A stretch of DNA of 39,205 nucleotides from Bacteroidales bacterium (GTDB lineage Bacteria; Bacteroidota; Bacteroidia; Bacteroidales; Tenuifilaceae): assembly GCA_043743775.1 (NCBI GenBank), contig JAYTVX010000397.1, positions 1 through 39,205 on the forward strand, in the 5' to 3' direction. A model generated the notes under the pieces. That model was not told the origin of the DNA. It worked only from the letters and a program-made list of their open reading frames with translations, and searched no databases. The position numbers were made by a program, and so were the translations under genes. Each line of letters starts with the position of its first letter. Positions within the stretch are counted from its first letter, which is position 1. This document shows positions 10,374-27,110 of the stretch, piece by piece.

Positions 10374-10408
10374 GAAAAAGCCCCATCTACTGAAAGGTAA
10401 ATGAGGCT
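10374..10408 (-). terminator. Intrinsic terminator downstream of the 586-aa gene
   Basis: Minus strand: AGCCTCAT-loop-ATGGGGCT (8 bp with one G-U pair), followed by TTTTTCT. Confidence 0.6.
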
Positions 10409-10427
10409 TTTGCTTATCCATTAAAAT

Positions 10428-12188: not shown

Positions 12189-12354
12189 CTACATTTTAGT
12201 TTTAAGGTGAAGCAATATTATATCTGACTTTATATGACGCTTAACAATAAAATATGTTACAATTATTTATTAAGTAAATGTATGAATAACCTAAATTGGT
12301 CTCTTTAAATCAGTGAGACTTTAATTTTGTGAAACAAAATTATTTTGTCGAACT

Positions 12355-12472
12355 GATCCCGAGTATGGCCGAGGGATCTCTAGGGTTATATTGCCTTCGG
12401 CGAACTCGCAAGCTCGGTTGGCTTCGCCTAGCTCGTAAACTCGGTTCCCCGCCGCTTGCGGTTAGGTAGTCC
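12355..12472. repeat. GC-rich structured island with an internal direct repeat in an AT-rich spacer
   Basis: Hairpin GATCCC-N12-GGGATC. Direct repeat CTCGCAAGCTCGGTT (12405-12419) and CTCGTAAACTCGGTT (12432-12446), 13 of 15 identical. The sequence is much more GC-rich than the flanks. Confidence 0.5.
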
Positions 12473-12500
12473 ATTAATGCAAACAATTTAAACTGTAGAA

Positions 12501-13607
12501 ATGAAGATCTCCCCTTTTAAGCTTGAGCGTTACTTTGCTAAATACGAATTTTCAGCGAAATATATGCTTTCAAGTTCCGACTGCGATGGGTTTAGGATGA
12601 ATGATATTCTGAGCATGTCAACCATTGAAGAACTAAAAATATGGCAAAATCTACAGCTTGGATATACCGAGAGTCAAGGATTGCCGATACTTAGAGACGA
12701 GATTACTAAACTTTATTCTACGATCTCTTCGGATGATGTGATGGTATTAACACCCGAGGAGGGTGTTTTCGTTGCGTTGAATAGTATCCTTAGCAAAGAT
12801 GATCACGTAATTTGTATTGCTCCGAGTTACCAATCCTTGCATCAAGTTGTACGTAGCATTGGTTGTGATATTATTTTTTGGTTACCCGATGAGGAGAAGG
12901 GATGGTATTTCGATCCGAATGACATTGAGAAGGCAATACGCCCCAATACTCGCCTAATCATAGTCAATTTCCCTCATAATCCTACTGGTTACTTGCCATC
13001 ACTTCATGATTTCCAAAGAATTATTGATATTGCAAAGGAGAACAATCTAATTCTATTTTCGGATGAGATGTACCGCTACCTTGAGCATGATTCTGAGTTA
13101 AGATTACCATCGGCAAGCGATTTGTACCCTAATGCCGTTTCTCTATCTGGATTATCGAAAACATTTGGCTTGGCGGGTCTGCGCATAGGCTGGCTTGCCA
13201 CCAAGAATCAAGAGTTACTTCAAGAAATGCTTGCCTTTAAGGATTACACAACCATTTGTAATAGCGCTCCAAGTGAGGTTTTAGCTTTAATCGGGTTGCG
13301 CCATAAGGAGTCTTTAGTCGGTCATAACCTTAAAAAGATTAGGTTGAATCTAAATCTACTCGATGAGTTCATTCAGAAACATGCTCACATCCTATCATGG
13401 AATAAACCAAAAGCAGGTACTATTGGACTGGCAAAGCTGAATATTGATTTCCCCAGCGAAGTTTTCTGTGAAAGGATTGTTAAGGATACCGGAATAATGA
13501 TTGTTCCGAGCGAGGTTTTTGATTACGGGGATAAGCATATCCGACTTGGCTTTGGCAGAGTAAATTTACCTGAAGTCCTTGACCTCTTTAGCAAATCTAT
13601 CCGTTAA
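12501..13607 (+). CDS. PLP-dependent aminotransferase, class I/II
   Basis: 368 aa with NFPHNPTG (conserved Asn-Pro-Thr-Gly) and SLSGLSKTFGLAGLRIGW (PLP-lysine motif SxSK...RxG). Substrate unknown. Confidence 0.8.
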   Translation: MKISPFKLERYFAKYEFSAKYMLSSSDCDGFRMNDILSMSTIEELKIWQNLQLGYTESQGLPILRDEITKLYSTISSDDVMVLTPEEGVFVALNSILSKDDHVICIAPSYQSLHQVVRSIGCDIIFWLPDEEKGWYFDPNDIEKAIRPNTRLIIVNFPHNPTGYLPSLHDFQRIIDIAKENNLILFSDEMYRYLEHDSELRLPSASDLYPNAVSLSGLSKTFGLAGLRIGWLATKNQELLQEMLAFKDYTTICNSAPSEVLALIGLRHKESLVGHNLKKIRLNLNLLDEFIQKHAHILSWNKPKAGTIGLAKLNIDFPSEVFCERIVKDTGIMIVPSEVFDYGDKHIRLGFGRVNLPEVLDLFSKSIR

Positions 13608-13768
13608 TCACGATGGAGGATAACAAGTTGTAAAACAAGTTATTTTTCGCTTGAATATTATTGGGTTTTTTTAACTTGCCACCGAAATAGATAATACTTT
13701 TTAGCTCAGGGTAAACCTTTTAAACTGTCAGCAATCAAAAATAAATATTAACCACCAACAGTAAAGCC

Positions 13769-15874
13769 ATGAAACGAATTCCATTACTTTTTCTAGTAGT
13801 TTTAATTATGTTTGGATGTAAGCATCAGGAGGAAAAATCCTTGAATCCATTCTTTAGCGAGTTTAATACTCCGTTTAATGTACCCCCATTCGACAAGATT
13901 GATACGAGCCATTATGCCCCTGCTTTTATTAAGGGTATTGCCGATCAGCAAGCCGAAATTGATGCGATTGTAAATAGCACAGAGGTACCTACTTTTGAAA
14001 ACACCATCTATGCTCTCGATAAATCGGGAAAACTGCTTGGAACTGTTAGCCGAGTTTTTTATGCATTAAACTCTGCAAATACTGATTCCGCAATGCAAGC
14101 AATTGCTCAAAAGGTTGCTCCCTTAACTACGAAGCACAAGGATAATATATCACTCAACGAAAAACTTTTTCTGCGTATCAAGGCAGTCTACGAGAGCCGT
14201 GAAACGAGCAATTTAGATGCTCTTCAGAAAAGGGTTGTTTCGAAATACTACAACGATTTTGTGCGAAGTGGTGCAAACTTGAGTGAGGCCGATAAAGAAA
14301 AATTACGCGAAATCAACCAGAAGTTGTCTACCTATAGTCTTAATTTCTTGGAGAATCATTTAGCCGAAACAAGTTCTAACTTTAAACTGGTTATCGACAA
14401 TAAGGAGGATTTAGCGGGCTTACCCCAAGAGGTGATAGATGCAGCATTGGATACTGTAAAGTTGGATGCATCGTTTGGCAAATGGATTTTCACACTTCAA
14501 AAACCCAGTTTGATTCCATTTCTACAGTATGCCAAGAATCGTAGCTTGCGCGAAAAAATATATCGCGGGTACTATATGCGTTGCAACAACAACGACAAGT
14601 TCGATAATAAGGAAAATATTCTAAATATTGCAAATCTGAGAGCGGAGCGCTCAAAATTATTGGGTTATAAGACCTATGCTGAGTATTCTATTAGCGAGAA
14701 TATGGCCAAAACCCCCGAAAAGGTTTATGAATTCTTAAACAAGTTGATGGTTCCAGCTCAAAAGGTTGCCCGGAGAGATCGGGATGAGATGCAGAAAATA
14801 ATTGATAAAGAGGGTGGTAAATTCAAGCTCGATACCTGGGATTGGTGGTACTATGCCGAAAAACTCAGGAAAGAGAAATACGACCTCAATGAATCAGAGA
14901 TTAAGCCCTATTTTGCCCTAAATAACGTTCGCGATGGGATGTTCTATGTAGCCAATAAGCTTTATGGACTAACATTCACCAAGCTCACCAATGTACCTGT
15001 TTATCATCCCGATGTAGAAGCCTTTGAGGTAAAAGAGGCCGATGGAGCTCATGCAGGGGTAATTTACTTAGATTATTTTCCACGCGAGAGCAAGGGTGCT
15101 GGGGCATGGTGTGGCGCATTTAGAGATCAGTATTACGATGAAAATGGCAAAAGAGTAGCACCTGTTATTACTATGGTTTTGAATTTCACAAAACCAACCG
15201 CCGATGCACCATCCTTACTTACTTGGGATGAAACTAGCACATTATTCCATGAGTTCGGACACGCTCTACATGGTTTATTCACCGATGGAAAATATAGCCG
15301 AATTGCAGGCAATATCCCAACCGATATGATTGAACTCCCATCACAGGTAATGGAAAACTGGGTAGGTGTACCTGAAGTATTGAATGTGTACGCGAAGCAT
15401 TATAAAACTGGCGAAGTAATACCTCCAGCACTCCTTGCAAAGCTACAAAAGAGTTTAGTTTTTAATCAGGCGTTTGAAACTGTTGAATATATCGCAGCAT
15501 CCGTGCTTGATCTTGATTGGTATAGCATTCAAGAGCCTAAGAAGTTAGACGTACTTGATTTTGAAAAGAAATCGATGGAAAAGCTAAATCTGATGAAGGA
15601 GATCATTCCAAGATACAGATCGACTTACTTTGCCCATATCATTGATGGTTATGCCGCTGGTTACTATGTATACCTTTGGGCCGCGGTTTTAGATTCCGAT
15701 GCATTCCAAGCATTCGTTGATTCTGGCGATATCTACAATAAGGATCTTGCTGCCAAATTCCGGAAGTATATTCTAACCGAGGGTGGAAACAATGAGGGAA
15801 TGATACAGTATGATAAGTTCAGAGGTCAGGAACCATCATTAGATCCACTACTTAAAAAACGTGGATTGGAGTAA
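13769..15874 (+). CDS. dcp: M3-family peptidyl-dipeptidase (Dcp / oligopeptidase A-like), lipoprotein
   Basis: 701 aa with the zinc motif FHEFGHALHG, overall M3 architecture, and a lipoprotein signal (LFLVVLIMFGC). Confidence 0.85.
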   Translation: MKRIPLLFLVVLIMFGCKHQEEKSLNPFFSEFNTPFNVPPFDKIDTSHYAPAFIKGIADQQAEIDAIVNSTEVPTFENTIYALDKSGKLLGTVSRVFYALNSANTDSAMQAIAQKVAPLTTKHKDNISLNEKLFLRIKAVYESRETSNLDALQKRVVSKYYNDFVRSGANLSEADKEKLREINQKLSTYSLNFLENHLAETSSNFKLVIDNKEDLAGLPQEVIDAALDTVKLDASFGKWIFTLQKPSLIPFLQYAKNRSLREKIYRGYYMRCNNNDKFDNKENILNIANLRAERSKLLGYKTYAEYSISENMAKTPEKVYEFLNKLMVPAQKVARRDRDEMQKIIDKEGGKFKLDTWDWWYYAEKLRKEKYDLNESEIKPYFALNNVRDGMFYVANKLYGLTFTKLTNVPVYHPDVEAFEVKEADGAHAGVIYLDYFPRESKGAGAWCGAFRDQYYDENGKRVAPVITMVLNFTKPTADAPSLLTWDETSTLFHEFGHALHGLFTDGKYSRIAGNIPTDMIELPSQVMENWVGVPEVLNVYAKHYKTGEVIPPALLAKLQKSLVFNQAFETVEYIAASVLDLDWYSIQEPKKLDVLDFEKKSMEKLNLMKEIIPRYRSTYFAHIIDGYAAGYYVYLWAAVLDSDAFQAFVDSGDIYNKDLAAKFRKYILTEGGNNEGMIQYDKFRGQEPSLDPLLKKRGLE

Positions 15875-15897
15875 CTGTCGTTACGAATTAATTTATT

Positions 15898-15923
15898 AAA
15901 AGGGGCTTTTTTAGCCCCTTTTT
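15898..15923 (+). terminator. Intrinsic terminator after dcp
   Basis: AAAAGGGGCT-TTTTT-AGCCCCTTTT is a 10-bp stem ending in a T-run. Confidence 0.8.
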
Positions 15924-16203
15924 GTATTATACAAATAGGATTAAACTATTTATATTTATTATTTCACCTAGCCACTGGTACTGTCTAACAGTATTGATCA
16001 TCTCAAAATCGCATTAGAGTATGGACATAAATCCATGATCTTGGTTCAAAAGATTAGTGCAATTCCGTTAGAGAAATTTTGTCGTATAAACCCTTGATGC
16101 TTTGAAGGGGAATAACGGGCAGGTCTATGATATACTCGCGGGGTGAGGGTGAACGGTGCAAATTAATAGTGTAATGGAGTGGTTACGGTTTAATTCACTA
16201 AGT

Positions 16204-16458
16204 CTACCATTTATTCTGAGGACAGCTATCAAACTTTTGTCGAACCTTTGCCGAAAGAATACAGCCACAATCAGCGCACTTCAGGCCATCTATTTCTTTT
16301 ATTGTATCGTCAGGTAAAAGTTGTTTAAACTTTGTCTCCACAGCGAAACTACATACTGCACAAATAGCCGCTCGTTTCAATGCAAGTTCTTCAACCTCTT
16401 TATTTGGGAATACGTAATTTTTAAAACCTGAAATGATTGCTTTTAATCTTTTATCCAT
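16204..16458 (-). CDS. Small Cys-rich hypothetical protein (probable zinc-binding)
   Basis: 84 aa with the Cys pattern CAVC...CADCGC...C-P-x-x-KW at the C-terminus. No family name confidently recalled. Confidence 0.5.
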   Translation of the reverse strand: MDKRLKAIISGFKNYVFPNKEVEELALKRAAICAVCSFAVETKFKQLLPDDTIKEIDGLKCADCGCILSAKVRQKFDSCPQNKW

Positions 16459-16641
16459 TATTTAAAATTCTTATCAGCGAATACCAATACTAAAAGTACA
16501 ATTTAATTATGTTTTTAAACAGTTAATTTAAGATTTTGTTTACGCATTTGCGTTACAAAAGAAATCAAATCAAAAAAAATAATCCTTTGTGTAAAGGAAG
16601 TCTTAATAATCACTGAATATTATGATTTGCTTAAAAATATT

Positions 16642-16649
16642 TAACTTTG
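16642..16649 (+). promoter_or_regulatory. Candidate -7 promoter box
   Basis: TAACTTTG (TAnnTTTG) lies 36 nt upstream of the ATG at 16685. Confidence 0.4.
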
Positions 16650-16684
16650 ATATAATAAAATAGATTAATAAAAATCAACGTGTT

Positions 16685-18289
16685 ATGAAAAATATCTTGT
16701 GTTTATTTACTCTATGGGTAGCTGTAAGTGCTATAGTACTTGGTCAAAATCAATCCAATAAGGTTGATATCAAGTGGGGGAACGAAATTAAGTCCTCGCG
16801 AAAGAAAACCCTTAGCGGCATAGTTGCTCATGATGAATCAGGTTTTTATGCAATTCAAAAAGAGCGTAAAGGGCTGCTCGGTCTTTCTTTTGATCTCTCC
16901 ATAGATCATTACGATAATAATGCAAACCAAACCAAATCAATTGATCTGAAATTGGGGGATGGTAAGAAGGAGATGATTTATGAGAATATACTTCAAATAA
17001 AAGACAACCTTTTTCTTTTCACCACCTATCAGGATCAGAAGACCAAAATGAACTCCTTATTCGTGCAAACTATCGATAAAAATTCACTACTGCCCAATAG
17101 TGATGCTAAGAAGATTGCAGAAATTGATTACTCAGGTAATCGGAAGAGTAACAGTGGTGAATATAGTATTGGGACATCAAGAGATGGTAGTAAAATTCTT
17201 GTTTTTTATAATCAACCATATGATAAGGGGGAGAAGGAGAAATTCGGATTCAGCGTGTTTGATATTACGATGAACTTGATTTGGAGTAAGAATATTGTTT
17301 TGCCTTACAATGATGAGCTCTTCGATATTGAGAAAAAGAAAGTGGACAATCAAGGGAATATTTACCTTCTGAATGCTGTTTACAAGGAGAAGCGGCGTAA
17401 AAAACGCCATGGTGAGCCTAATTATCAGTACACAATACTTTCTTTTAAAAAGGATATTGAAAATGCTGAAGAATACCCGATTGATTTACCCGGTAAGTTT
17501 ATTACTGATATGCAATTTTCAATTACCGATAATCAGGACTTTGTTTGTATCGGTTTTTACTCCGATAAAGGTACTTTCAGTATCAAAGGTACTTACTATG
17601 TTTCCATTGATGGAAAGACCAAGGAGATTAAATCGCAAAGTTTTAAAGAGTTTTCCATTGATGTTCTGCGTGAAAATTTAACTGAGAGGCAACAAAAAAA
17701 ACTTGATAAAAAAATAGAAAAAGGTAAGCAGGTTGAACTCTACGAGTACGATCTGCACGAAGTTATACACCGCGATAATGGGTGCACAACACTTGTTGGA
17801 GAGCAGTACTATGTTGATATTGTAACTACAACTCAAACTATAGGTAACACAACCACTACTACCACTACTTTCTATTATAACTATAACGATATCATTGTTG
17901 TTAATATCGACCCGAAGGGTCAAATTGAGTGGGTGAAGAAGATTCCCAAGAGGCAGGTTACTACCAACGATGGTGGCTTTTACTCATCGTACGTGATGAG
18001 TATTACTAACGACAAACTCTACTTTATTTTCAACGATAACCCGAAAAATCTCTTGGAATCAACAACGGATTCAAAAAAATTCGCAACCTTTTCAAATCAA
18101 AAGGGCTCAGTAGCCGTTCTCGTTGAGGTGGATAAAGATGGCAATTATAAAAAAGAGCCACTATTCAAAACGGTTGATGCTGAGGTGATGATTCGCCCAA
18201 AGGTTTGTGAGCAGATATCGAGTAATGAGATGATTCTTTTCGGTCAAAGGAAGAAAGCAGAACGATTTGCTCGGTTAACATTCAAATAG
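16685..18289 (+). CDS. Secreted hypothetical protein
   Basis: 534 aa with a signal peptide (MKNILCLFTLWVAVSAIVLGQ). The composition is beta-rich, with a Lys-rich segment (ERQQKKLDKKIEKGK) and a run of seven Thr. No family recognised. Confidence 0.7.
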   Translation: MKNILCLFTLWVAVSAIVLGQNQSNKVDIKWGNEIKSSRKKTLSGIVAHDESGFYAIQKERKGLLGLSFDLSIDHYDNNANQTKSIDLKLGDGKKEMIYENILQIKDNLFLFTTYQDQKTKMNSLFVQTIDKNSLLPNSDAKKIAEIDYSGNRKSNSGEYSIGTSRDGSKILVFYNQPYDKGEKEKFGFSVFDITMNLIWSKNIVLPYNDELFDIEKKKVDNQGNIYLLNAVYKEKRRKKRHGEPNYQYTILSFKKDIENAEEYPIDLPGKFITDMQFSITDNQDFVCIGFYSDKGTFSIKGTYYVSIDGKTKEIKSQSFKEFSIDVLRENLTERQQKKLDKKIEKGKQVELYEYDLHEVIHRDNGCTTLVGEQYYVDIVTTTQTIGNTTTTTTTFYYNYNDIIVVNIDPKGQIEWVKKIPKRQVTTNDGGFYSSYVMSITNDKLYFIFNDNPKNLLESTTDSKKFATFSNQKGSVAVLVEVDKDGNYKKEPLFKTVDAEVMIRPKVCEQISSNEMILFGQRKKAERFARLTFK

Positions 18290-18310
18290 GTTGGATTAAA
18301 ATATAAATTC

Positions 18311-18347
18311 TAACGGTTAACAGTGGTCTGTTGATCGTTAGTTTTTT
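18311..18347 (+). terminator. Intrinsic terminator after the 534-aa gene
   Basis: TAACGGTTAACAG-TGGT-CTGTTGATCGTTA (13 bp with 2 G-U pairs), followed by GTTTTTT. Confidence 0.65.
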
Positions 18348-18371
18348 AATACACCATTCCTAAGTTTTTTA

Positions 18372-18433
18372 TTAAGGGCATCTCTAAAAGACAATCCTCG
18401 CAATGACGAATGGTTTTTTAGAAATGCCCTTAA
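18372..18433. repeat. Long imperfect inverted repeat (18-bp arms, 26-nt loop)
   Basis: The left arm TTAAGGGCATCTCTAAAA pairs with the right arm TTTTAGAAATGCCCTTAA with one mismatch. The loop contains CCTCGCAATGACGAATGG. Confidence 0.6.
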
Positions 18434-18475
18434 GAGCGGGGATCTCAAATTTGTGTTAAAAAAACAAAATTTAGG

Positions 18476-18835
18476 ATGTCAATAAATTATACTATCATCT
18501 TTCGATTATCTTTGAGGCAAGATATTAGTATGGTTAAAAAAAATGCAATCAAGTTCATAACTATTCTAACCATCATGATTTGCATGGAGGGGGTTAAGAC
18601 GTCTGCCCTCATTAACCATCAAATATACTGCGACCTTTATTTAGCTGATATCGAAGATTCTGCAATTTCTAACCACCACCATCTTTTTGACACATTCGAA
18701 CAAGAAAATTGGAATATGCCTAACTCCCAAAGCGATGCATTCCTACAAGGAGTAGCTGATAAGCAAATTATTTCTAAACCGCTTGTTAAACAGGAGCTCT
18801 GCAATTCAATCTGGCAACCCCCTAAGTTAGTCTAG
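18476..18835 (+). CDS. Small hypothetical exported protein with a His triplet
   Basis: 119-aa ORF. The more likely start is MVKKNAIKFITILTIMICM at 18530 (signal-like). It contains SNHHHLFD. The coding call is weak. Confidence 0.35.
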   Translation: MSINYTIIFRLSLRQDISMVKKNAIKFITILTIMICMEGVKTSALINHQIYCDLYLADIEDSAISNHHHLFDTFEQENWNMPNSQSDAFLQGVADKQIISKPLVKQELCNSIWQPPKLV

Positions 18836-18916
18836 TTTTCCTTTCGTAACATTTTCTACTTATCTGATAAACTTCGGATTGGTTCGATTTTTAATAACTT
18901 ATAGCAATTATTTGGT

Positions 18917-19771
18917 ATGGCAAATGAAAAAACGCGAGTGGCAGGTATTTCGGTTTTTGCCGCACTTTTCTTAACAGGTATTAAACTTGTTGTTGGTATT
19001 ATAACTGGAAGTCTTGGACTTTTATCGGAAGCGTTGCATTCGGGGCTCGATTTAGTAGCAGCTGTGATAACCTATTTCTCAGTAAAAATATCTGATACTC
19101 CGCCCGATAAAAAGCATCACTATGGACATGGTAAGATTGAGAATTTCTCAGCATTCCTTGAGACAATACTTCTTTTAATCACCTGTGCATGGATTATCTA
19201 TGAAGCTTTACACCGATTGATTTCAGGCAATACAGATATCGAGATAAATATTTGGAGTTACATCGTAGTTATAATATCAATCTTAGTAGATGTTACACGC
19301 TCCAGAGCATTGTATCGTGTCGCTAAGAAATATAATAGTCAAGCATTAGAGGCTGATGCCCTTCATTTCTCAACCGATATCTGGAGTTCTGCTGTTGTGC
19401 TTGTTGGTTTGATCTGTGCAAATTTTGGCTTCTTCTTTGCCGATTCAGTTGCTGCTCTTGTCGTTGCTTTAATCGTTATTGTTATCTCTTATAGGTTGGG
19501 TAAACGATCAATGAATGTACTTCTTGACTATGCTCCTGAGGATAAAGTTTCTACAATCAAGGATCTTATTGTTACAATCTCGGAGGTTCATGGATTTAAG
19601 GATTTACGGGTTAGGACTGCAGGAGCAGAGACTTTTGTTAAGGTAACAATCCTGTTAGATTCTAAGTTTACGCTAAGCGAGGTGCATGAAATCTGTGATA
19701 AAGTTGAGGGGGTAATTTGTTCAGAGATTGAAAGGTGCGATGTATCGGTACATGCCGAGCCGTTTGATTAA
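18917..19771 (+). CDS. Cation diffusion facilitator (CDF) family metal efflux transporter
   Basis: 284 aa with six predicted TM segments, HSGLDL and HYGHGKIE motifs, and a C-terminal cytoplasmic domain. Confidence 0.85.
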   Translation: MANEKTRVAGISVFAALFLTGIKLVVGIITGSLGLLSEALHSGLDLVAAVITYFSVKISDTPPDKKHHYGHGKIENFSAFLETILLLITCAWIIYEALHRLISGNTDIEINIWSYIVVIISILVDVTRSRALYRVAKKYNSQALEADALHFSTDIWSSAVVLVGLICANFGFFFADSVAALVVALIVIVISYRLGKRSMNVLLDYAPEDKVSTIKDLIVTISEVHGFKDLRVRTAGAETFVKVTILLDSKFTLSEVHEICDKVEGVICSEIERCDVSVHAEPFD

Positions 19772-19809
19772 TGGGAACGATTTCATGGTAGTTAATAATT
19801 GATAACGAT

Positions 19810-20085
19810 ATGGGACTTGATAATTTATTTGAAAATCACGACAAGCATAAAAGTCATCATCCTTACTGTGAACAGGGGCATCATGATAGCTATAATTATG
19901 CGGGTCGACATGCTGAATATAAGCATCAACAGCAGCAGTACATGAACTATTTTCTGTGCAAGGTTTGGAGTAATAGACAACTACGTTTGCTAGCAATTGT
20001 TTTTGCTTTTCTGGTGATTTTAATAGCGATTGTTCTAATTGCTGTTCTGATACCCTTACTGCATAAACTTGTCGATTTTTTATAA
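19810..20085 (+). CDS. Small His-rich membrane-anchored protein
   Basis: 91 aa with 8 His and 1 Cys in the first 40 residues (HDKHKSHHPYCEQGHH...H...H), then a single C-terminal TM helix (LRLLAIVFAFLVILIAIVLIAVLIPLL). Preferred over the overlapping minus-strand ORF 19721..19996. Confidence 0.5.
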   Translation: MGLDNLFENHDKHKSHHPYCEQGHHDSYNYAGRHAEYKHQQQQYMNYFLCKVWSNRQLRLLAIVFAFLVILIAIVLIAVLIPLLHKLVDFL

Positions 20086-20155
20086 GAGACTGAGTTTAGG
20101 GTGCATTTCTATTTCTTTCGAACAAAAAAAACTATTTAACTATTAAACGATAAGA

Positions 20156-20770
20156 ATGACTGTAATAAAAAGATTATACCAATGGGTTTTACACTGGGCA
20201 CAAACCCCTTACGGGCCAATTGCTTTATTCCTTTTAGCATTTACTGAATCAATATTTTTCCCTATCCCCCCCGATGTGCTACTTATAGTTCTGGTGATGG
20301 GGTGTAGCGCTAAAGCCTTTAGATATGCATTGAACTGTACAATAGGCTCAGTTGCAGGTGCATTTGTTGGTTACTCGGTAGGCTATTTTACCTGGCTGCA
20401 CTCAGATGGGAGTTTTACTGGATTTGCAAATTTCTTTTTTAATAATATTCCGGGATTTTCAGTTGGTTTATATGATAGTATCAAAGCATTATACGACCAA
20501 TGGGGGTTTTGGGTGATATTTACGGCAGGATTTACCCCGATTCCCTATAAGGTATTTACCATTACTGCTGGTGTATTTGACTTAAACCTTTTGATGTTCT
20601 TTCTTGCTTCGTTGATAGGTCGTGGCGCAAGGTTTTTTCTTGTAGCATTCCTAATCTGGAAGTTTGGACCAAGCATTAAGTTATTTATCCAGAAGTATTT
20701 TAACCTTCTAGCGTTGGGATTTACTGCATGCTTAATAGGTGGTTTTGTGGCAATAAAATATGTGCTGTGA
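20156..20770 (+). CDS. YqaA-family (DedA/SNARE-associated-like) inner-membrane protein
   Basis: 204 aa with WAQTPYGPIALFLLAFTESIFFPIPPDVLL, typical of YqaA, and multiple TM helices. Confidence 0.7.
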   Translation: MTVIKRLYQWVLHWAQTPYGPIALFLLAFTESIFFPIPPDVLLIVLVMGCSAKAFRYALNCTIGSVAGAFVGYSVGYFTWLHSDGSFTGFANFFFNNIPGFSVGLYDSIKALYDQWGFWVIFTAGFTPIPYKVFTITAGVFDLNLLMFFLASLIGRGARFFLVAFLIWKFGPSIKLFIQKYFNLLALGFTACLIGGFVAIKYVL

Positions 20771-20861
20771 TAGGTTCAGTATAAATATTAAAGAACAGAT
20801 TAATGGTTTAATTATAAACTTTTATCATTTAACCTTTGTTATAATATAAACCCTAATAACT

Positions 20862-21545
20862 ATGATCTCAGCCAAAGATAAACTCGCCGATATTATTTGT
20901 CGTAATATCGACCTATTACCAATTACCTTCAGATTTGGTATCAACTCAAACATTGGTCAAACTTCAATTGACGAGATATGTTCTGGAAAAGGGATTGATC
21001 TTGATTTCTTCCTATCAGTAATTAACACCTACAATTCGAGCAATTATTTTCCAAATACCGATACAATTAACCTTAAGCTTCTGACCGATTTCTTGACCAA
21101 AACACATGATTATCATAAGATTATTACTATTCCTCGACTTCGTGAGTTAATGCATGCATTAAAAAGTAAACTTCCCGATAAAGAGTTAATTGTTACACTT
21201 GAAAAATACCTCAATGAGTATATCAAAAAATTAATCGCTCATATAGATTTTGAGGAGAATAATATCTTCCCACTTGTTGATATAGTCAATTGTAAAGGGG
21301 CTGATAAAAGGGACAAAACCTCTTTGAGTAATCTTAAAAAATTATTTAGTCAACACGTTAATGTCGAGACCGAGATTGGCGATTTGATAATGATAATCAT
21401 TCAGCATATTCCTGAAGATTCGAGCGTTCAGCTGTACCACGAAATCTTACATACCTTATCTCACTTCGAAAAGGAACAGATTGATCATGCTCGTTTTGAG
21501 GATAAAATTCTTGTTCCAAGATTATTGAAACTGCACGCAATCTAG
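20862..21545 (+). CDS. Hemerythrin-like di-iron protein (RIC/ScdA-like architecture)
   Basis: 227 aa. The N-terminus (LADIICRNIDLLPITFRFGI) resembles the ScdA N-domain. His/Glu ligand-like motifs: THDYH, HIDFEENNIFP, QH...E, HFEKEQIDHARFEDKILVP. Confidence 0.55.
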   Translation: MISAKDKLADIICRNIDLLPITFRFGINSNIGQTSIDEICSGKGIDLDFFLSVINTYNSSNYFPNTDTINLKLLTDFLTKTHDYHKIITIPRLRELMHALKSKLPDKELIVTLEKYLNEYIKKLIAHIDFEENNIFPLVDIVNCKGADKRDKTSLSNLKKLFSQHVNVETEIGDLIMIIIQHIPEDSSVQLYHEILHTLSHFEKEQIDHARFEDKILVPRLLKLHAI

Positions 21546-21549
21546 ATTT

Positions 21550-22116
21550 ATGGCCTGTCGTAGCTGCATAATAATACATCAATCGCCTATTGTTCAGAAT
21601 GGGCTAAATGCTATTGTACAAACCCTTAAGATCGATCTTCGTGATGTTTTGGTTGATTATCCCAACTGTAAATTTTTATTGGAGTGGACAAATTCTATCG
21701 TGCTAATAGATACAAAGTATCAAGAATTTATCCAAAAGCACCTAAAATATCTACAAAAACGTAATAATGCGATTATTGGAATAGATTTTACCGAATCACC
21801 ACAATCCGATTTATCGGCTTTTGATGAGGTTGTTTTTAAAACCGATAGTCAAAGTACTATCTTCAGTAAACTCAGTAGGTTTACAGATAAGAGAATCGAG
21901 AAAGGAGCAAGTAATCAATTATCAATTCGAGAGCGTGAAGTACTTAGGTTGGTTGCTCAGGGCAATAGCAATAAGAACATAGCTGAAAAGTTATTCATAA
22001 GCATTCACACAGTCATTACTCATCGTAAACATATAACAAGTAAACTTGGTGTTAAATCAATATCAGGATTAACACTCTATGCTGCAATTAATAACATAAT
22101 AGATAAGCCTCTTTAA
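21550..22116 (+). CDS. LuxR/GerE-family transcriptional regulator with an atypical receiver-like N-terminal domain
   Basis: C-terminal HTH: LSIREREVLRLVAQGNSNKNIAEKLFISIHTVITHRKHITSKLGV. The N-terminus is REC-like, but the usual acidic pair reads HQ (IIIHQSPIV). The gene starts 4 nt after the upstream stop. Confidence 0.8.
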   Translation: MACRSCIIIHQSPIVQNGLNAIVQTLKIDLRDVLVDYPNCKFLLEWTNSIVLIDTKYQEFIQKHLKYLQKRNNAIIGIDFTESPQSDLSAFDEVVFKTDSQSTIFSKLSRFTDKRIEKGASNQLSIREREVLRLVAQGNSNKNIAEKLFISIHTVITHRKHITSKLGVKSISGLTLYAAINNIIDKPL

Positions 22117-22190
22117 TATACCTATAAATAGGGATTGTAGACCATTTATATTGCGATTTACTTTGCACTCAAACAAAACTTAAACGAATC

Positions 22191-23006
22191 ATGAGTGCAA
22201 TTAATTTATTCTCAAAGAACCTTGTTCTTTTTACCTTTTTGAGTTTACCCCTTTTACCCATGGCACAGGATCGGATTTTTACCTACACCTACCAGAGTGC
22301 AGTTCTTAATAAAGGTCAGCGTGAGCTGGAGGTTTGGAATACCCTTCGTTCAGGAAGAACTGATTATTATACCCGTTTAGATAATCGAACGGAGTTTGAG
22401 GTAGGACTTGGGAGTAAGCTACAAACTTCGTTTTATTTAAATCTTACATCAATAACTCAAACTGTTGAGGAGGCTGCCGTAAAATCCAACACAACTGAGC
22501 ATGAGATTAGCTTCTCAAATGAGTGGAAGTTGAAGTTGATGGATCCCGTTGCAAACCCAATTGGTCTTGCATTATATGCTGAATATGGGATTGGAAGTAG
22601 TGAGTATGAGTTTGAGGGTAAACTTATCCTTGATAAGAAGGTAAATAACCTTACTATTGCCACTAATGCTGTTTATGAAATGGAAATTGCCCCTGAATAT
22701 GTGAATAATAGTTCAGTGTGGAATAAAGAAAACAAACTTGATTATTATTTAGCTTTTGGATATGCATTAAGCCCAAAATTCCAACTTACAATGGAAAATG
22801 CTTTTAGGAATGTTTATGTGGAAAAGGAATTGGAGCATAGCGCCCTTTTCTCAGGTCTGGGTTTCTCTTATGTACAGGATAACTTTTGGTTGAATTTTAC
22901 TGTTCTACCTCAGATCAAATCGTTTAAAGGTGCAACCAGCAGTTTCTTAAATCTTAATGAATATGAAAAAATTCAGTTCAGATTGCTTTTCTCATACGCT
23001 TTCTAG
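22191..23006 (+). CDS. Small outer-membrane beta-barrel protein (hypothetical)
   Basis: 271 aa with a signal peptide (LVLFTFLSLPLLPMAQD), an alternating beta-strand pattern, and a C-terminal ...FRLLFSYAF with terminal Phe, typical of OMPs. Confidence 0.6.
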   Translation: MSAINLFSKNLVLFTFLSLPLLPMAQDRIFTYTYQSAVLNKGQRELEVWNTLRSGRTDYYTRLDNRTEFEVGLGSKLQTSFYLNLTSITQTVEEAAVKSNTTEHEISFSNEWKLKLMDPVANPIGLALYAEYGIGSSEYEFEGKLILDKKVNNLTIATNAVYEMEIAPEYVNNSSVWNKENKLDYYLAFGYALSPKFQLTMENAFRNVYVEKELEHSALFSGLGFSYVQDNFWLNFTVLPQIKSFKGATSSFLNLNEYEKIQFRLLFSYAF

Positions 23007-23298
23007 AAGATGGTTGGTAATGTGTCTATCAATTTTTTTAACAGGATTTATATACGCATGTGCTACCGCTTTATATATTCCATGCAAAAATCAAAGTGTT
23101 TCCAAAGAGAATTTACAGGAGATGATAGATGGACGGATTACCTATATTAATAAATGTGGAGGATGCCATTCATTGGTTGTTCCTGAAAAGTATAGTGCTA
23201 TAGAATGGTGTAAATGGGTTGATAAAATGGAACCTAAGGCGAAGTTGACTTCAAAAGAAAAGATCGATATCCTTAAATATTTATCAATGGGAAAATAA
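22957..23298 (+). CDS. Small lipoprotein-like protein with a c-type heme-binding motif (CxxCH)
   Basis: Contains KCGGCHSLVVP and downstream Met residues. The likely true start is MCLSIFLTGFIYAC at 23020. The ORF-track start overlaps the upstream gene by 50 nt. Confidence 0.55.
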   Translation: MNMKKFSSDCFSHTLSRRWLVMCLSIFLTGFIYACATALYIPCKNQSVSKENLQEMIDGRITYINKCGGCHSLVVPEKYSAIEWCKWVDKMEPKAKLTSKEKIDILKYLSMGK

Positions 23299-23331
23299 TA
23301 GAATTTCTGATCAAATAATAAGATAAAAGAA

Positions 23332-23354
23332 AATGCCCTTCTTTGAAGGGCATT
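23332..23354. terminator. Bidirectional intrinsic terminator between the cytochrome-like gene and gatD
   Basis: AATGCCCTT-CTTTG-AAGGGCATT is a perfect 9-bp stem. The minus strand continues with TTTTCTTTT (5 nt after the gatD stop) and the plus strand with CCTTTT. Confidence 0.8.
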
Positions 23355-23358
23355 CCTT

Positions 23359-24741
23359 TTATTTCCTAAATCTCCTTATAAATGCTTCCACTTCAGGAAC
23401 GCCACCCTGATAAATAAGATAACCATTGTACGGTTCTCTTTGGGTGATTTCATCGTTAATGGGGGTTAGCATCATTTTTTTCACCTCCTCACGGTCGTTG
23501 GTTTGGCCAAGAACCCAACCCAACTTGATATAGGCTGTTTCGGGGAGCATGTTTTCAAGAGGGACAATCCCTTTCGCCATTAGGTCGCGACCGGTATCGT
23601 AAACGTACATATGAACAAATCCCCAAAGGGTTTGCACGGTCATGAAGACATGAACGCCTTTCTTATAGGCTCGTTCAATTGCAGGGTAAAGCGGTTTGTT
23701 GATGTGTCCAAGTCCTGTTCCCGCAATAATAATCCCTTTGTAACCATTGTCCACTAAAGAATCAATGATATCGGGTTGCATGTTGGGGTAGTAGTAAACA
23801 ATGGTAACCTTTTCATCGAAAAAGGGCATTATCTTAACTTTTCTATCCTTTCGGCGATGGTTGTAATCCTCTTTAATTGGAACAACTCCTTTACGACTTA
23901 CTGTTGCAATGGGGGTGTCGCCAATGGTACGGAAGGTGCTTCGGTACGATGAGTGCATCTTACGTACACGTGTTCCCCTGTGTAAAAAACCATATTCATC
24001 GGAGGTTGGACCAAACATACATACCATCACCTCTGCGATATCGGAATGACCTGCAGCTGTAGTGGCATGCATCAGGTTAAGAGCGGCATCGCTGCTAGGG
24101 CGGTCGGAACTACGTTGTGAACCTACTAGAATAATTGGTACAGGAGGATTCTGAACCATAAACGTAAGTGCTGCTGCAGTATGGCTTAGCGTATCGGTTC
24201 CATGACCGATGATAATACCATCAATCCCGTTTTCGATCTCTTTACCAATGGCAATGGCAAGCGTTTTATACTGTTCAGGGCCCATATTCTCGCTGAAAAC
24301 AGCAAAAAGTTTATCCGTTGTCAGATTGCAGATATCGGCTAACTCGGGGACAGCACCATAAAGTTCACCAGGAGAGAATGCTGGAATAACAGCACCTGTC
24401 CTATAATCGAGACGGGATGCAATTGTTCCTCCAGTTCCTAAAAGTTTCACCTTTGGCAAATTCGGTGTGACAGGGAATTCCTTTTCAGGAATCTTGTAAG
24501 TAGCCTTGAAGTATCCAGTCTCTTTCATCCCCTTGATGGTAACAATATCGATCCCGATATTGTACCCAGTCTCAATTTTTAGAACGATATGCTGATCGTC
24601 ATCATTCTCGGAGCGGGGAAGGACAGTTCCTTTAAATTCACCACGGGTTGTATCAATTACCGCTTTACCCCAAACGCGAACATTATATTTTTTAAGCACC
24701 TCGAGGGCTTTGCCTTTATATCCTTGAAAAATATCTTCCAT
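23359..24741 (-). CDS. gatD: Glutamyl-tRNA(Gln) amidotransferase subunit D (archaeal-type GatD)
   Basis: 460 aa. GatD-specific N-terminal domain (GEFKGTVLPRSENDDDQHIVLKIETGYNIGIDI) plus an asparaginase-type domain with LGTGGTIAS, GHGTDTL, GSQRSSDRPSSDA and VRKMHSS. It aligns from memory along its full length with archaeal GatD and sits next to gatE. Confidence 0.9.
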   Translation of the reverse strand: MEDIFQGYKGKALEVLKKYNVRVWGKAVIDTTRGEFKGTVLPRSENDDDQHIVLKIETGYNIGIDIVTIKGMKETGYFKATYKIPEKEFPVTPNLPKVKLLGTGGTIASRLDYRTGAVIPAFSPGELYGAVPELADICNLTTDKLFAVFSENMGPEQYKTLAIAIGKEIENGIDGIIIGHGTDTLSHTAAALTFMVQNPPVPIILVGSQRSSDRPSSDAALNLMHATTAAGHSDIAEVMVCMFGPTSDEYGFLHRGTRVRKMHSSYRSTFRTIGDTPIATVSRKGVVPIKEDYNHRRKDRKVKIMPFFDEKVTIVYYYPNMQPDIIDSLVDNGYKGIIIAGTGLGHINKPLYPAIERAYKKGVHVFMTVQTLWGFVHMYVYDTGRDLMAKGIVPLENMLPETAYIKLGWVLGQTNDREEVKKMMLTPINDEITQREPYNGYLIYQGGVPEVEAFIRRFRK

Positions 24742-24782
24742 TGTTACAGATTTATGCAGTTAAATAGGATTGTAAATAATTA

Positions 24783-24849
24783 CCCCTCTTTGTCTCCCCT
24801 TGAAAAGGGGAGAATCCCCTCCTTTTTAAGGGAGGGGTTGGGGAGGTTG
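24783..24849. repeat. GC-rich double-hairpin (REP-like) element in the gatE-gatD spacer
   Basis: Hairpin 1: TCTCCCCT-TGAAA-AGGGGAGA (24793-24813). Hairpin 2: CCCCTCC-TTTTTAA-GGAGGGG (24816-24837). Poly-G/poly-C blocks contrast with the AT-rich flanks. Confidence 0.6.
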
Positions 24850-24894
24850 TTTTATTATCTAAGCAACATTTTCATATTAAAACAATAATTGGAC

Positions 24895-26898
24895 TTAAAC
24901 CTTAGCCAATTTTTTTTCGATGTTCTTCTTTAAATCTTTAAGGGCAACATTTCCGAGTGCTTGACGGTTGAGCTGTCCCATAACCCAGTTTAAGGGTATT
25001 TCTGGTGAGTTACTTTTTGAGAGTTTAATTTCCCTAAACTTCTCAAGAAGGTATTCAACTGGGGCAAGCAATTCATCGTTGGTGCGTCGTTTAAAGTTGA
25101 TACTTGTTAGCACCGAGTCGAAATCCATATTCGGGTGCTGGTAGATGGTGGGTAGCATCAATTTTGCAATCGAAGGCTGTAGCTTCTGCTTGTTGAGGAA
25201 ATCGAACATCTCAACAATTCGATTGTAGGTGAAATCGTTATGCTTCTCGATTTTTCCTTCAACGTATTTAAGTGAATGTCCAAGGAAGGTTCCGGCAAAT
25301 CGTCCTGTAATGCCTATTTTTACTAGCTGCTCAATTATGGGAACAAGATTCTTCTTAAGAAGATAGGTGTAGGTATCGGATGGTATATTCCAATCCTTCA
25401 TCTGCTTATACCTATCAGCAATATCCATTGGGATACGCTTTTCGAGCATGTCGATATAGCTTTGCTCGAGTGGGATAGGAGCAGAGTCAGTATCGGGGTA
25501 CATACGATCGGCACCTGGTAGAACTCTTTCGAATAGGGTCGTTCCATTGGATAGCGGTTGACGAGTTTCTCTTGGAACACCATCAAATGCCATCTTGCAA
25601 CGTTCCTGAATGACGTCTAAAGCCGTTGGAATATCACTTTCAATCCCCCAAATTAGAACAATCGCATCATCATCAGACGCGTTTAGTATTGTAGCTAAAA
25701 TATCAAGGTCTTTTGAACAAAGCGGGATATCCAAATCTTCGGAACTGGTGATGTTTGGTTTTTCTATACCGGCAATCACCTTTAATCGATCACTGAGCTC
25801 ATTGGTAAAACATTTGCCAGGTTGTGTAAAGTGAGAAAGAATCCCCTTGAATTGAGGTAGACAAATTGCATAAACCTTGAATCCATCATCAATGTAGCTA
25901 ATTACTAGTTCATTCTCAAGACCAATGTCACGAGGATCGATCTCAGCAGTCTTCATTGCCCAGCTAGCTGGTGTTTTAACCTTTTCGAGAAGAAGTTTTC
26001 GGACGTTAAGCAGCGCCCATTGCCGAAAGCACTCATTATGGGATAGTTCAGGAATCCATTTGATATGCGAAACCCCTTTTATCTCAACCCTAGTTCCTCC
26101 CTCGCAGCTAACGTTGGTGTCCTGGCGCGCAGCGCCCATACCTGTGCGAACCTTGCCCGTGCTTCGGTTTAGAAAGCGAATGTATTCGCCTGCTTCACGA
26201 AGCTCATCGGGGGTAAAGCATTCGGGGTGGGTAACCGTCTCAATCAAAGGCATACCCAACCTATCGGTTTTGTATATTCGTTGATGTCCAATATCTGAAA
26301 TCTCGCGGCACGAATCCTCCTCAATGCTGAGCTGTATTAGACCAACCGTTTTATTCTTAAGCTGAATTCTTCCCTCAACCCCAAGAATTGCAGTACGCTG
26401 AAATCCTGTAGGAATTGATCCATCGAGGTACTGCTTGCGCGTGATGTGAACCTCCCCAACGATATTGAGTTTGCTCAGTAACGAAATTTCAAGGGCAAAC
26501 TCCAACGCTTCCCGGTTAATGGGGAAAGGAGGAGTGTCGTCAATTTCGTATGTACATGTGGTTTGGTTATGTAAACGGTAGGTAATCTCCTTACGGGTTT
26601 TAAACTCCATTAACGCAGTACCATCGTACTCACCCATCTCGCTAAGCGTTGGCCGCATGTGACGGATAATCTCAGCATGGTAATCGTTGCTATTGTGGAA
26701 AATACCGGCAGGACAACGGCAGAAAAGTTTCTTCTTGGTTTTTAGCTGTTGGTGTACCTCCAGACCAGATTTAAAACCTATCCGCTTGTAATCTTCTGAC
26801 TTGGCTTTCAATCGGCTAACGTAACCGATAGATTTCATAGTGCTTATGTAGTTCTTATGCGGGTCGAACTTTTTAACGGGGGATGAACCTTTTTTCAT
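24895..26898 (-). CDS. gatE: Glutamyl-tRNA(Gln) amidotransferase subunit E (archaeal-type GatE)
   Basis: 667 aa. GatB/E cradle motifs: GLEVHQQLKTKKKLFCRCP, DDTPPFPINREALE, TGFQRTAILG, DRLGMPLIETVT, GAARQDTNVS...RVEIKGV. It also has the GatE-type ~150-aa insertion before the helical tail. It is far longer than GatB and is paired with an asparaginase-type GatD. Confidence 0.9.
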   Translation of the reverse strand: MKKGSSPVKKFDPHKNYISTMKSIGYVSRLKAKSEDYKRIGFKSGLEVHQQLKTKKKLFCRCPAGIFHNSNDYHAEIIRHMRPTLSEMGEYDGTALMEFKTRKEITYRLHNQTTCTYEIDDTPPFPINREALEFALEISLLSKLNIVGEVHITRKQYLDGSIPTGFQRTAILGVEGRIQLKNKTVGLIQLSIEEDSCREISDIGHQRIYKTDRLGMPLIETVTHPECFTPDELREAGEYIRFLNRSTGKVRTGMGAARQDTNVSCEGGTRVEIKGVSHIKWIPELSHNECFRQWALLNVRKLLLEKVKTPASWAMKTAEIDPRDIGLENELVISYIDDGFKVYAICLPQFKGILSHFTQPGKCFTNELSDRLKVIAGIEKPNITSSEDLDIPLCSKDLDILATILNASDDDAIVLIWGIESDIPTALDVIQERCKMAFDGVPRETRQPLSNGTTLFERVLPGADRMYPDTDSAPIPLEQSYIDMLEKRIPMDIADRYKQMKDWNIPSDTYTYLLKKNLVPIIEQLVKIGITGRFAGTFLGHSLKYVEGKIEKHNDFTYNRIVEMFDFLNKQKLQPSIAKLMLPTIYQHPNMDFDSVLTSINFKRRTNDELLAPVEYLLEKFREIKLSKSNSPEIPLNWVMGQLNRQALGNVALKDLKKNIEKKLAKV

Positions 26899-27070
26899 TT
26901 TGAATAGAAGTTAGAATTGCTAAAAATGCCCCAAAAAAGGCAGCTCTAAATTAGCTTTGTTTCTGGTGATTGCAAAATAAGTATCGGGTTACAAATGACA
27001 AATTATATAACAGGTGTTAAAAATGGAAACATTATTTAGGGTATTATTTTTCTTAATCCCTTAATTTTCA

Positions 27071-27078
27071 TAAATTTG
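27071..27078 (+). promoter_or_regulatory. Candidate -7 promoter box
   Basis: TAAATTTG (TAnnTTTG) lies 33 nt upstream of the ATG at 27111. Confidence 0.4.
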
Positions 27079-27110
27079 GTTTGAATTAGCGTAAGGGCAA
27101 TCATTTTTTT

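Follow-up and report, generated by a model that had tools for sequence, protein, structure and literature searches.

A conserved clade of GatDE-type amidotransferases in Bacteroidales and other bacteria, with a probable role on Glu-tRNA(Gln)

GatDE is an amidotransferase that consists of a tRNA-dependent kinase/transamidase subunit, GatE, and an asparaginase-type glutaminase subunit, GatD. Reviews from 2008, 2021, and 2022 describe it as an archaeal signature protein that is found in Archaea only (PMC2330236, PMC8007984, PMC9499178). A gatE-gatD gene pair is located on the minus strand of a 39,205-nucleotide contig from a Bacteroidales bacterium of the Tenuifilaceae (JAYTVX010000397.1, assembly GCA_043743775.1), and this whole stretch of DNA is referred to here as the window. 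The two proteins are members of the GatD and GatE families and feature intact catalytic residues, they are under strong purifying conservation in a syntenic neighborhood with a wide distribution in Bacteroidota, and the bacterial GatE sequences are nested inside archaeal GatE. The pair is probably a functional bacterial-lineage GatDE for Glu-tRNA(Gln) that was acquired once from an archaeon and has been inherited vertically in environmental Bacteroidales families. What is new is the breadth and conservation of a bacterial GatDE clade that is unrecognized in the searched literature, and it is neither a new mechanism nor a feature of the window only. A keyword search of ~8.3 million full texts found no mention of bacterial GatDE. 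From the standpoint of annotation the proteins are ordinary, because the NCBI and JGI pipelines name them correctly and already label hundreds of these bacterial proteins as GatD or GatE.

Identity of the GatD and GatE proteins

The gatD gene (23359..24741, minus strand) encodes the glutaminase subunit of 460 amino acids. The protein passes both GatD equivalog models, NF003217 with 502.9 bits (cut-off 310) and TIGR02153 with 499.7 bits (cut-off 324). It also passes TIGR00519, a model of the asparaginase subfamily, with 373.6 bits, which is below the 502.9 bits obtained with the GatD equivalogs. The domain structure features a GatD_N domain at residues 33–67 (24541..24645, minus strand; PF18195, 45.1 bits against a cut-off of 25.7) and the N- and C-terminal asparaginase domains (23470..24453, minus strand; PF00710, E 1e-54, and PF17763, E 2.4e-34), all three of which score over their gathering scores. 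GatD aligns over its full length to the crystallized chains 1ZQ1_A (E 1.3e-118) and 2D6F_A (E 3e-114). In the alignment, Thr106, Thr182-Asp183, and Lys261 are equivalent to Thr101, Thr177-Asp178, and Lys254 of the Methanothermobacter thermautotrophicus (M. thermautotrophicus) protein, and mutagenesis studies of that enzyme showed that the corresponding catalytic residues of GatD and GatE are essential (PMC2330236). A stand-alone type I asparaginase (AnsA) is ruled out by the GatD_N domain, the higher scores with the GatD equivalogs, and the operon with gatE.

The gatE gene (24895..26898, minus strand) encodes the kinase/transamidase subunit of 667 amino acids. Among the curated NCBI models, the protein passes the GatE equivalogs NF003107 (473.8 bits, cut-off 456) and TIGR00134 (401.7 bits, cut-off 319.6). 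None of the six GatB models is reached, the top score being 126.7 bits against a cut-off of 338, and the GatB subunit of GatCAB is ruled out as an identity by scores that lie far below all six cut-offs. The Pfam GatB_N match in GatE spans residues 44–482, a stretch this long because an insertion interrupts it. GatE aligns end to end with 2D6F_C (E 1.5e-87), residues 36–663 being placed onto residues 2–618, and 1ZQ1_C is also aligned over its full length. An AlphaFold2 model of GatE has a mean predicted local distance difference test (pLDDT) score of 75, and a Foldseek search with this model returned 1zq1_C and 2d6f_D/C as the top structures with target-normalized template modeling (TM) scores of 0.66–0.73, followed by GatB.

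Three regions of GatE can be assigned on the basis of these alignments. The core of the cradle (catalytic) domain (26239..26754, minus strand) holds the Mg2+-binding triad, which consists of His49 (codon 26752-26754), Glu193 (26320-26322), and Glu220 (26239-26241), all on the minus strand. These residues align with His15, Glu157, and Glu184 of M. thermautotrophicus GatE, whose mutation abolishes activity (PMC2330236). Wherever the alignment covers them, the triad residues are kept in 39 bacterial and 85 archaeal GatE representatives and in three GatB sequences, where one fragment in each of the bacterial and archaeal sets is gapped at the His. The second region is the GatE-specific AspRS/GAD-like insertion domain at about residues 305–450 (25549..25986, minus strand), which aligns with the insertion of crystallized GatE and forms a confident alpha/beta domain in the AlphaFold2 model. 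Weak matches of the model to AspRS folds are consistent with an AspRS-like insertion domain, and PF02938 (GAD) is recorded in several GatE homologues. The third is a YqeY-like helical tail at residues 544–664 (24907..25269, minus strand) that aligns to the tail of 2D6F_C; PF02637 (GatB_Yqey) scores 24.4 bits here, which is under the Pfam gathering score of 27, and it is recorded for many homologues. The protein therefore has the architecture of GatE, a cradle with an AspRS-like insertion and then a helical, YqeY-like tail.

Bacteroidota GatE proteins carry an additional N-terminal extension, which is located at residues 1–35 of the window protein (26794..26898, minus strand). Bacteroidota GatE has 41–49 residues before the catalytic His, compared with typically 14–16 in archaeal GatE. 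The extension is basic, with 9 Lys/Arg versus 2 Asp/Glu in 35 residues, and features the motif F-[DN]-P-x-[KQ]-N-Y-x-x-T-x-K-x-I-G-Y-V-x-R-x-x-A, whose positions are invariant or near-invariant when the 120 best Bacteroidales homologues are aligned. The AlphaFold2 model predicts helices at residues 13–24 and 34–40 with pLDDT values of 92–94 for residues 11–40. The motif was not found in archaeal GatE or in other members of the bacterial clade, which have variable N-termini. A contact of the extension with tRNA or with the glutamyl-tRNA synthetase (GluRS) is a reasonable guess, and the basic N-terminal helix is a candidate element for a re-tuned tRNA recognition.

A preliminary description of this DNA, made without database searches, had proposed that the pair is GatD/GatE and not GatB with an ordinary asparaginase, and had suggested profile hidden Markov model searches as the check. 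Those searches side with the GatE and GatD models for both open reading frames (ORFs) and fail with the GatB models, and the proposal is borne out by the equivalog scores, the GatD_N domain, the alignments to crystal chains, and the structure matches. The insertion of ~150 amino acids that it placed at residues 300–450 of GatE is present and aligns with the insertion domain of crystallized GatE. The unusual basic N-terminal extension is also real and is conserved across Bacteroidota, with a length of ~35 residues rather than the ~40 that had been given. The single family feature from which the pair departs is the taxonomic restriction to Archaea, as the window and all related loci are bacterial. 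This restriction is a distributional statement in the literature and not a molecular criterion, and it is therefore no argument against membership.

Distribution and origin of bacterial GatDE

A GatE search of 5.8 billion protein clusters found the best 120 relatives at 64–93% identity, and every organism-named protein among the 120 listed is from Bacteroidota, including Tenuifilum thalassicum (T. thalassicum) and several Ancylomarina species. The GatD search gives the same picture, with 86–98% identity among the matches listed, and adds T. osseticum. A scan of one genome per GTDB species determined that at least 394 species-representative genomes carry a relative of GatE, and the best 80 of these 394 stretches were used for locus comparisons. 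These 80 are all from Bacteroidota and cover Tenuifilaceae, Salinivirgaceae, Marinilabiliales, Prolixibacteraceae, and Lentimicrobiaceae, with two complete chromosomes of metagenome-assembled genomes (MAGs) among them. The gatD gene directly follows gatE in at least 59 of the 80 loci, and the synteny lolE ... gatE-gatD-nudix-mltF-porin10 persists down to a GatE identity of 63%. Identity to the window proteins over the 80 Bacteroidota species is 75–96% for GatD and 59–89% for GatE, and this conservation equals or exceeds that of the flanking aspC, lolE, rnhA, and namZ. The pair is also present in the closed chromosome of T. thalassicum (CP041345.1, 3,195,778 bp) and in the isolate genome of Ancylomarina subtilis (SHKN01000001.1, assembly GCA_004217115.1). 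The MAG chromosomes OY781965.2 and OY764079.1 are further carriers that are closed or nearly so.

The setting of the pair in the window is bacterial. The 3' part of a 5S rRNA is located at 1-95, the first 521 codons of a bacterial-type valS are located at 37641-39203, and Pfam matches identify Porin_10, an MltF-like transglycosylase, DUF1573 proteins, a LolE-like permease, and NamZ; a 1500-amino acid protein with a type IX secretion system (T9SS) sorting tail is encoded as well. The GC content of gatD and gatE is 0.434–0.438, and their GC, GC3, and codon usage lie within the spread of the window genes and match aspC and rnhA. A Pfam scan of 20 of the 23 ORFs of at least 150 amino acids besides the pair gave no match to integrase or transposase families among these 20 neighboring ORFs, and no tRNA gene was found within the 39-kb window. 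No GatE was found on bacterial plasmids in PLSDB. A mobile-element origin was rejected on the basis of the plasmid result, the lack of integrase and transposase matches in the ORFs scanned, and the lack of a compositional anomaly. These results agree with the preliminary description, which had listed 5S rRNA, a T9SS cargo protein, MltF, LolC/E, and DUF1573 as bacterial context, each of which was located in the window, and which had noted a base composition that by eye resembles valS and aspC and the absence of an integrase, transposase, or tRNA flanking the pair. It had also called the surrounding chromosome Bacteroidota-like; the chromosome is indeed one of Bacteroidota, and closed isolate genomes show the same arrangement. 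A pair that was already widespread and characterized in Bacteroidota had been named as a reason to doubt its novelty; widespread is correct, across Bacteroidales, several phyla, and the names in databases, but characterized is not.

The clade extends beyond Bacteroidota. Searching 1.84 billion cluster representatives exhaustively with HMMER yielded 594 matches at E <= 1e-30, and the full-length representatives are split into a group with 36–51% identity that includes the window protein and the remainder with ~30%. The bacterial group consists of 39 clusters at 50% identity over several phyla. In the 36–51% group, the members with names come from a Deltaproteobacteria MAG and from a CSSED10-310 bacterium, and a profile of the bacterial group also recovered proteins labeled as Calditrichia, KSB1, Latescibacteria, Krumholzibacteria, Aminicenantes, Candidatus Desulfaltia, and a 'Clostridiales bacterium' MAG. 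Desulfobacterota are among the members of the clade. The genomic contexts of non-Bacteroidota members contain unmistakably bacterial genes in all seven that were sampled, for example HAMP/HisKA kinases, sigma-54 activators, RND pumps with OEP, LolA, Lnt, MurC/MurD/MraZ/RsmH, HPr kinase, BamD, and a T9SS tail. In six of the seven, gatE is followed directly by gatD. No gltX, glnS, or tRNA gene recurs as a neighbor in the sampled contexts of the bacterial clade, and there is one glnA-gatE-gatD operon.

This operon is located in the Deltaproteobacteria MAG GCA_016938035.1 (locus L087, 8584-13326), where 4 nt separate the end of glnA from gatE, which in turn overlaps gatD. The apparent operon would couple the supply of the amide donor to the amidotransferase and is a weak pointer to glutamine. 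A second locus, L097 (7369-11965), features a clade GatE with ~40% identity to that of the window beside a T9SS-tailed protein, Lnt, BamD, and ResB; there is no adjacent gatD, and this is another lineage of the Fibrobacteres–Chlorobi–Bacteroidetes (FCB) group with unlinked subunits.

Outside the bacterial group, the named proteins are from archaea, namely Heimdall-, Thor-, and Hodarchaeales, Thermoprotei, and DPANN archaea. The Heimdall locus contains archaeal ribosomal genes, and its gatD and gatE are divergent. A neighbor-joining tree of GatE was rooted with three GatB sequences and evaluated with 200 bootstrap replicates. The 39-member bacterial GatE clade is found with 99% bootstrap and the Bacteroidota subclade with 100%, and none of the 200 replicates features a monophyletic archaeal GatE that excludes the bacteria. 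The bacterial GatE is nested inside archaeal GatE, and its sister in 54% of replicates is Heimdallarchaeota. GatD is congruent, with 58–76% identity among bacterial phyla compared with 44–53% to Heimdall, Pyrococcus, and Methanothermobacter. For both GatE and GatD, the identities to Heimdall are slightly above those to other archaea.

The best reading of these sequence relationships, drawn from a distance method with a remote outgroup, is that both genes passed from archaea to bacteria in a single ancient transfer that was followed by a long residence in bacteria, with a donor that was possibly Asgard-like. The preliminary description had suggested a domesticated inter-domain transfer, and the nesting in the GatB-rooted tree fits this suggestion. 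Acquisition would have occurred once and long ago from an archaeon whose nearest sampled sequences are Asgard, the later path of the genes, by spread or by descent, would have led through several phyla, most of them of the FCB group, and in environmental Bacteroidales families the pair would have been inherited vertically, mostly as a gatE-gatD operon in a conserved neighborhood. On the archaeal side, an unannotated haloarchaeal GatE was observed on a 987-kb replicon of Natrinema thermotolerans (CP031304.1; locus L092, ~2989-4890), where the match comes in two pieces. The longest ORF is just 448 amino acids, which is probably due to a frameshift, a pseudogene, or a sequencing error.

Predicted function and alternative explanations

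The most likely function of bacterial GatDE, by analogy with the archaeal enzyme, is the transamidation of Glu-tRNA(Gln) to Gln-tRNA(Gln), and the mechanism is taken from the archaeal GatDE (PMC2330236, PMC9499178). GatD and GatE would assemble as an alpha2-beta2 tetramer (GatD2-GatE2). A GluRS that also charges tRNA(Gln) would supply Glu-tRNA(Gln), which would be bound by GatE, and GatE would phosphorylate the gamma-carboxyl group with ATP and Mg2+ through His49, Glu193, and Glu220. GatD would hydrolyze Gln or Asn through Thr106, Thr182, Asp183, and Lys261, and the ammonia would pass through an inter-subunit tunnel of ~40 Å and displace the phosphate to form Gln-tRNA(Gln). The substrate, a non-discriminating GluRS, and the re-tuning to a bacterial tRNA(Gln) are inferred features of this scheme.

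There are several points that weigh against a functional, once-acquired GatDE for Glu-tRNA(Gln). The activity of bacterial GatDE is a prediction from the archaeal enzyme, and the placement of the donor is weak, with 54% for Heimdallarchaeota in a distance tree with a remote outgroup. Two surveys from 2014 (Table S1 of PMC4206432; PMC3927822) list glnS and no gatCAB for every classical Bacteroidales genus that they cover, and Bacteroidetes GluRS was classed as discriminating (PMC3927822). A discriminating GluRS together with a glutaminyl-tRNA synthetase (GlnRS), if shared by the carriers of the pair, would leave GatDE with no Glu-tRNA(Gln) substrate. Archaeal GatDE needs the A1-U72 pair of tRNA(Gln), whereas GatCAB recognizes the bacterial U1-A72 (PMC2330236). 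Additionally, about 16 Bacteroidota species have an intact gatE and no gatD within 3.6-10 kb. These loci (L028, L034, L037, L038, L041, L042, L048, L058, L059, L065, L066, L068, L070, L075, L078, and L080) keep the N-terminal motif, and gatD was not found within 3.6-10 kb downstream or in the upstream flank (up to 10 kb), so that the subunit genes are unlinked or gatD is missing. The linkage of gatE and gatD is therefore common and not obligatory.

With GlnRS and GluRS of E. coli and GatA and GatB of Listeria as queries, tblastn over the 1.57 Mb of window and related loci gave no match except GatE itself, and no tRNA-Gln gene was found in the window or in 60 related loci scanned. Parts 1-2 of Table S1 in PMC4206432 list no genus that lacks both glnS and gatCAB. 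Coexistence of GatDE with GlnRS is slightly favored, and GatDE as the only route to Gln-tRNA(Gln), with GlnRS lost in these lineages, is given a little less than an even chance. A more far-reaching proposal is tentative: Tenuifilaceae and environmental Bacteroidales related to them, and perhaps also Calditrichota, KSB1, Latescibacterota, and Aminicenantes, may depend on GatDE as their sole, essential route to Gln-tRNA(Gln). GatDE may there have displaced GlnRS and GatCAB, its recognition having shifted from A1-U72 to U1-A72 with the basic N-terminal helix of Bacteroidota GatE as one element of the altered recognition surface, and its specificity perhaps being dual and including Asn. A separate observation on GlnRS concerns plasmids. 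A plasmid-borne glnS with ~99% identity to the chromosomal E. coli glnS was found on at least 27 plasmids of ~75-96 kb from E. coli, E. fergusonii, and Salmonella (for example NZ_CP029365.1, 84390-86048), and there are 105 records at >=95% identity, some of which are larger. A GlnRS of Phocaeicola, a genus of Bacteroidales, is also present in the plasmid collection.

Among the alternatives, a substrate that has shifted or broadened to Asp-tRNA(Asn) is unlikely. The enzyme would then serve tRNA-dependent asparagine synthesis, as GatCAB does beside GlnRS. With GlnRS present and GatCAB absent in classical Bacteroidales, as reported in PMC4206432 and PMC3927822, a Glu-specific enzyme would seem jobless. 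Archaeal GatDE rejects Asp-tRNA(Asn) by the first base pair and D-loop positions 19/20 and not by the amino acid (PMC2330236), and U1-A72 is found in tRNA(Asn) of nearly all bacteria surveyed in PMC2330236 and PMC4206432. As GatCAB recognizes U1-A72, a re-tuned enzyme could therefore accept both tRNAs. In PMC4206432, some Bacteroidetes, such as Bacteroidales bacterium CF and Porphyromonas, have neither asnA nor asnB. However, no GatDE is known to act on Asp-tRNA(Asn), the asparaginyl-tRNA synthetase (AsnRS) is present in all Bacteroidales surveyed in PMC4206432, the glnA-gatE-gatD operon in one clade member points to glutamine, and both proteins score over the curated GatD and GatE equivalog thresholds.

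An ancient bacterial GatDE lineage that descends from LUCA, the last universal common ancestor, or from the bacterial ancestor, that was lost in most bacteria, and that involved no archaeal transfer, is quite improbable. A GatDE already in LUCA was put forward by Sheppard and Soll (cited in PMC9499178), the bacterial clade is deep and diverse with its 39 clusters at 50% identity in several phyla, and the composition of the genes is fully host-like. Such a lineage is nevertheless hard to combine with the 0/200 replicates for archaeal monophyly, the Asgard sequences as nearest neighbors, the slightly higher identities of GatE and GatD to Heimdall than to other archaea, and a distribution that is limited to a minority of phyla.

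A job outside of translation, such as a regulated glutaminase/asparaginase or a kinase of a non-tRNA substrate, or a redundant relic that drifts beside GlnRS, is very improbable. The problem of the Glu-tRNA(Gln) substrate in classical Bacteroidales applies to this explanation as a supporting point, and ~20% of the Bacteroidota sampled have unlinked gatE and gatD genes. However, GatE keeps all of its kinase/transamidase residues along with the insertion and tail domains for tRNA binding, GatD is 75–96% identical across families and is therefore incompatible with drift, and archaeal GatD is inactive as a glutaminase without Glu-tRNA(Gln) (PMC2330236).

An artifact, be it a chimeric assembly, an archaeal mis-bin, or a misread GatB plus AnsA, has a negligible chance and is favored solely by the prior expectation of GatDE as archaeal, since the same pair with the same bacterial neighbors is found in dozens of independent assemblies and closed isolate chromosomes, the composition matches the host, the GatB models stay below their cut-offs, and the GatD_N domain is present. 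A chimera, archaeal contamination, and a recent insertion are excluded because closed genomes and conserved synteny carry the pair, which settles the concern of the preliminary description over a chimeric or mis-binned contig.

Transamidation of Glu-tRNA(Gln) by a GatDE of archaeal origin remains the preferred reading, and the bacterial clade bears on several questions. Its presence in hundreds of Bacteroidales species and several other phyla changes the Archaea-only picture, and it is the Archaea-only distribution that underlies arguments about the translation apparatus of LUCA and about why GlnRS never entered Archaea. The clade would represent a clean, old case of a core component of translation that moved from archaea to bacteria, the donor possibly being Asgard-like. 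It shows that a bacterial tRNA set and a bacterial GluRS are compatible with a working, or at any rate a strongly maintained, GatDE. Surveys score only gatCAB, and its absence is read as a defunct indirect Gln pathway in PMC3927822 and in Table S1 of PMC4206432; scoring of gatCAB only would misclassify GatDE-bearing genomes. The co-evolution of the amidotransferase with tRNA(Gln) identity is now testable in cultured T. thalassicum, T. osseticum, and Ancylomarina.

Locus organization and comparison with known systems

The gatE-gatD spacer of the window (24742..24894, minus strand) is 153 nt long, and ~110 nt of it are extra sequence that is specific to this genome, as the five relatives closest to it show ~30 nt here. 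The additional segment forms two strong G+C-rich hairpins, CCCCUCC...GGAGGGG and UCUCCCCUU...AAGGGGAGA, and the spacer fold has a minimum free energy of -40.8 kcal/mol (z = -3.4). A repeated element was considered for this hairpin-rich sequence and rejected, as the window contains one copy and none of the 94 loci compared has it. The extra sequence may have arisen as a small inserted element, or it may act as an internal attenuator or processing site. The gatE gene is preceded by an intergenic region (26899..27110, minus strand) that is shared with the divergent orf27111 and is the presumed gatE-gatD promoter region. Sigma-70-like matches were found at 27029-27002 and 27001-26974 with a scan that does not cover Bacteroidota promoters, and they are not evidence of function.

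Directly 3' of gatD, a consensus scan identified a bidirectional terminator-like hairpin (23330..23356, no strand assigned) with a 12-bp stem and then a T run, for which the function is inferred. A small ORF at 22957-23298 is convergent with gatD and shares this hairpin. It contains a CGGCH motif resembling a haem-binding site and therefore may be a small c-type cytochrome. In many Bacteroidales (L010, L019-L024, L026, L027, and L032), the gene directly after gatD is Nudix/CoA-pyrophosphatase-like, and mltF and porin10 come next. The window differs in that ~19 kb (4400-23350) lie between gatD and the Nudix/CoA-pyrophosphatase-like gene (orf 3766-4395), mltF, and porin10. Genes for the T9SS cargo protein, an M3 peptidase, and a CDF transporter are located in this block, together with a hemerythrin-like gene and one for a LuxR-type regulator. 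The separation in the window, compared with the direct adjacency in relatives, amounts to a lineage-specific rearrangement or insertion.

The closest characterized systems are the archaeal GatDE enzymes of M. thermautotrophicus (2D6F) and Pyrococcus abyssi (1ZQ1). The bacterial pair shares the two subunits, the domain order, and the catalytic residues with these enzymes, and they are its best fold matches. Identity to the crystallized enzymes is ~30% for GatE and ~45-48% for GatD. Bacteroidota GatE differs by its conserved basic N-terminal extension of ~35 residues, and the genes form a gatE-gatD operon here, whereas they are divergent in the one Heimdallarchaeon examined. Because the host is bacterial, its tRNA(Gln) should be of the bacterial type (U1-A72, as for GatCAB) and not the archaeal A1-U72. 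The nearest named archaeal relatives are the Asgard GatDE of Heimdallarchaeota and Thorarchaeota. The Heimdall GatE scores 407 bits with ~36% identity over the full length, and Asgard GatE is sister to the bacterial clade in the rooted distance tree with a support of 54%. It lacks the N-terminal extension, and its gene orientation is divergent.

Bacterial GatCAB also combines a tRNA-dependent kinase/transamidase with a glutaminase, and GatB and GatE are paralogues that share the cradle and the Mg2+ triad. GatCAB differs in its amidase-type GatA and in GatC, and GatB lacks the insertion domain, whereas the glutaminase described here is of the asparaginase type; no GatA or GatB genes were found in the window or related loci (1.57 Mb). 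Type I L-asparaginase (AnsA) has the same fold as the catalytic domains of GatD. In contrast to AnsA, GatD features the additional GatD_N domain, scores higher with the GatD equivalogs, and adjoins gatE.

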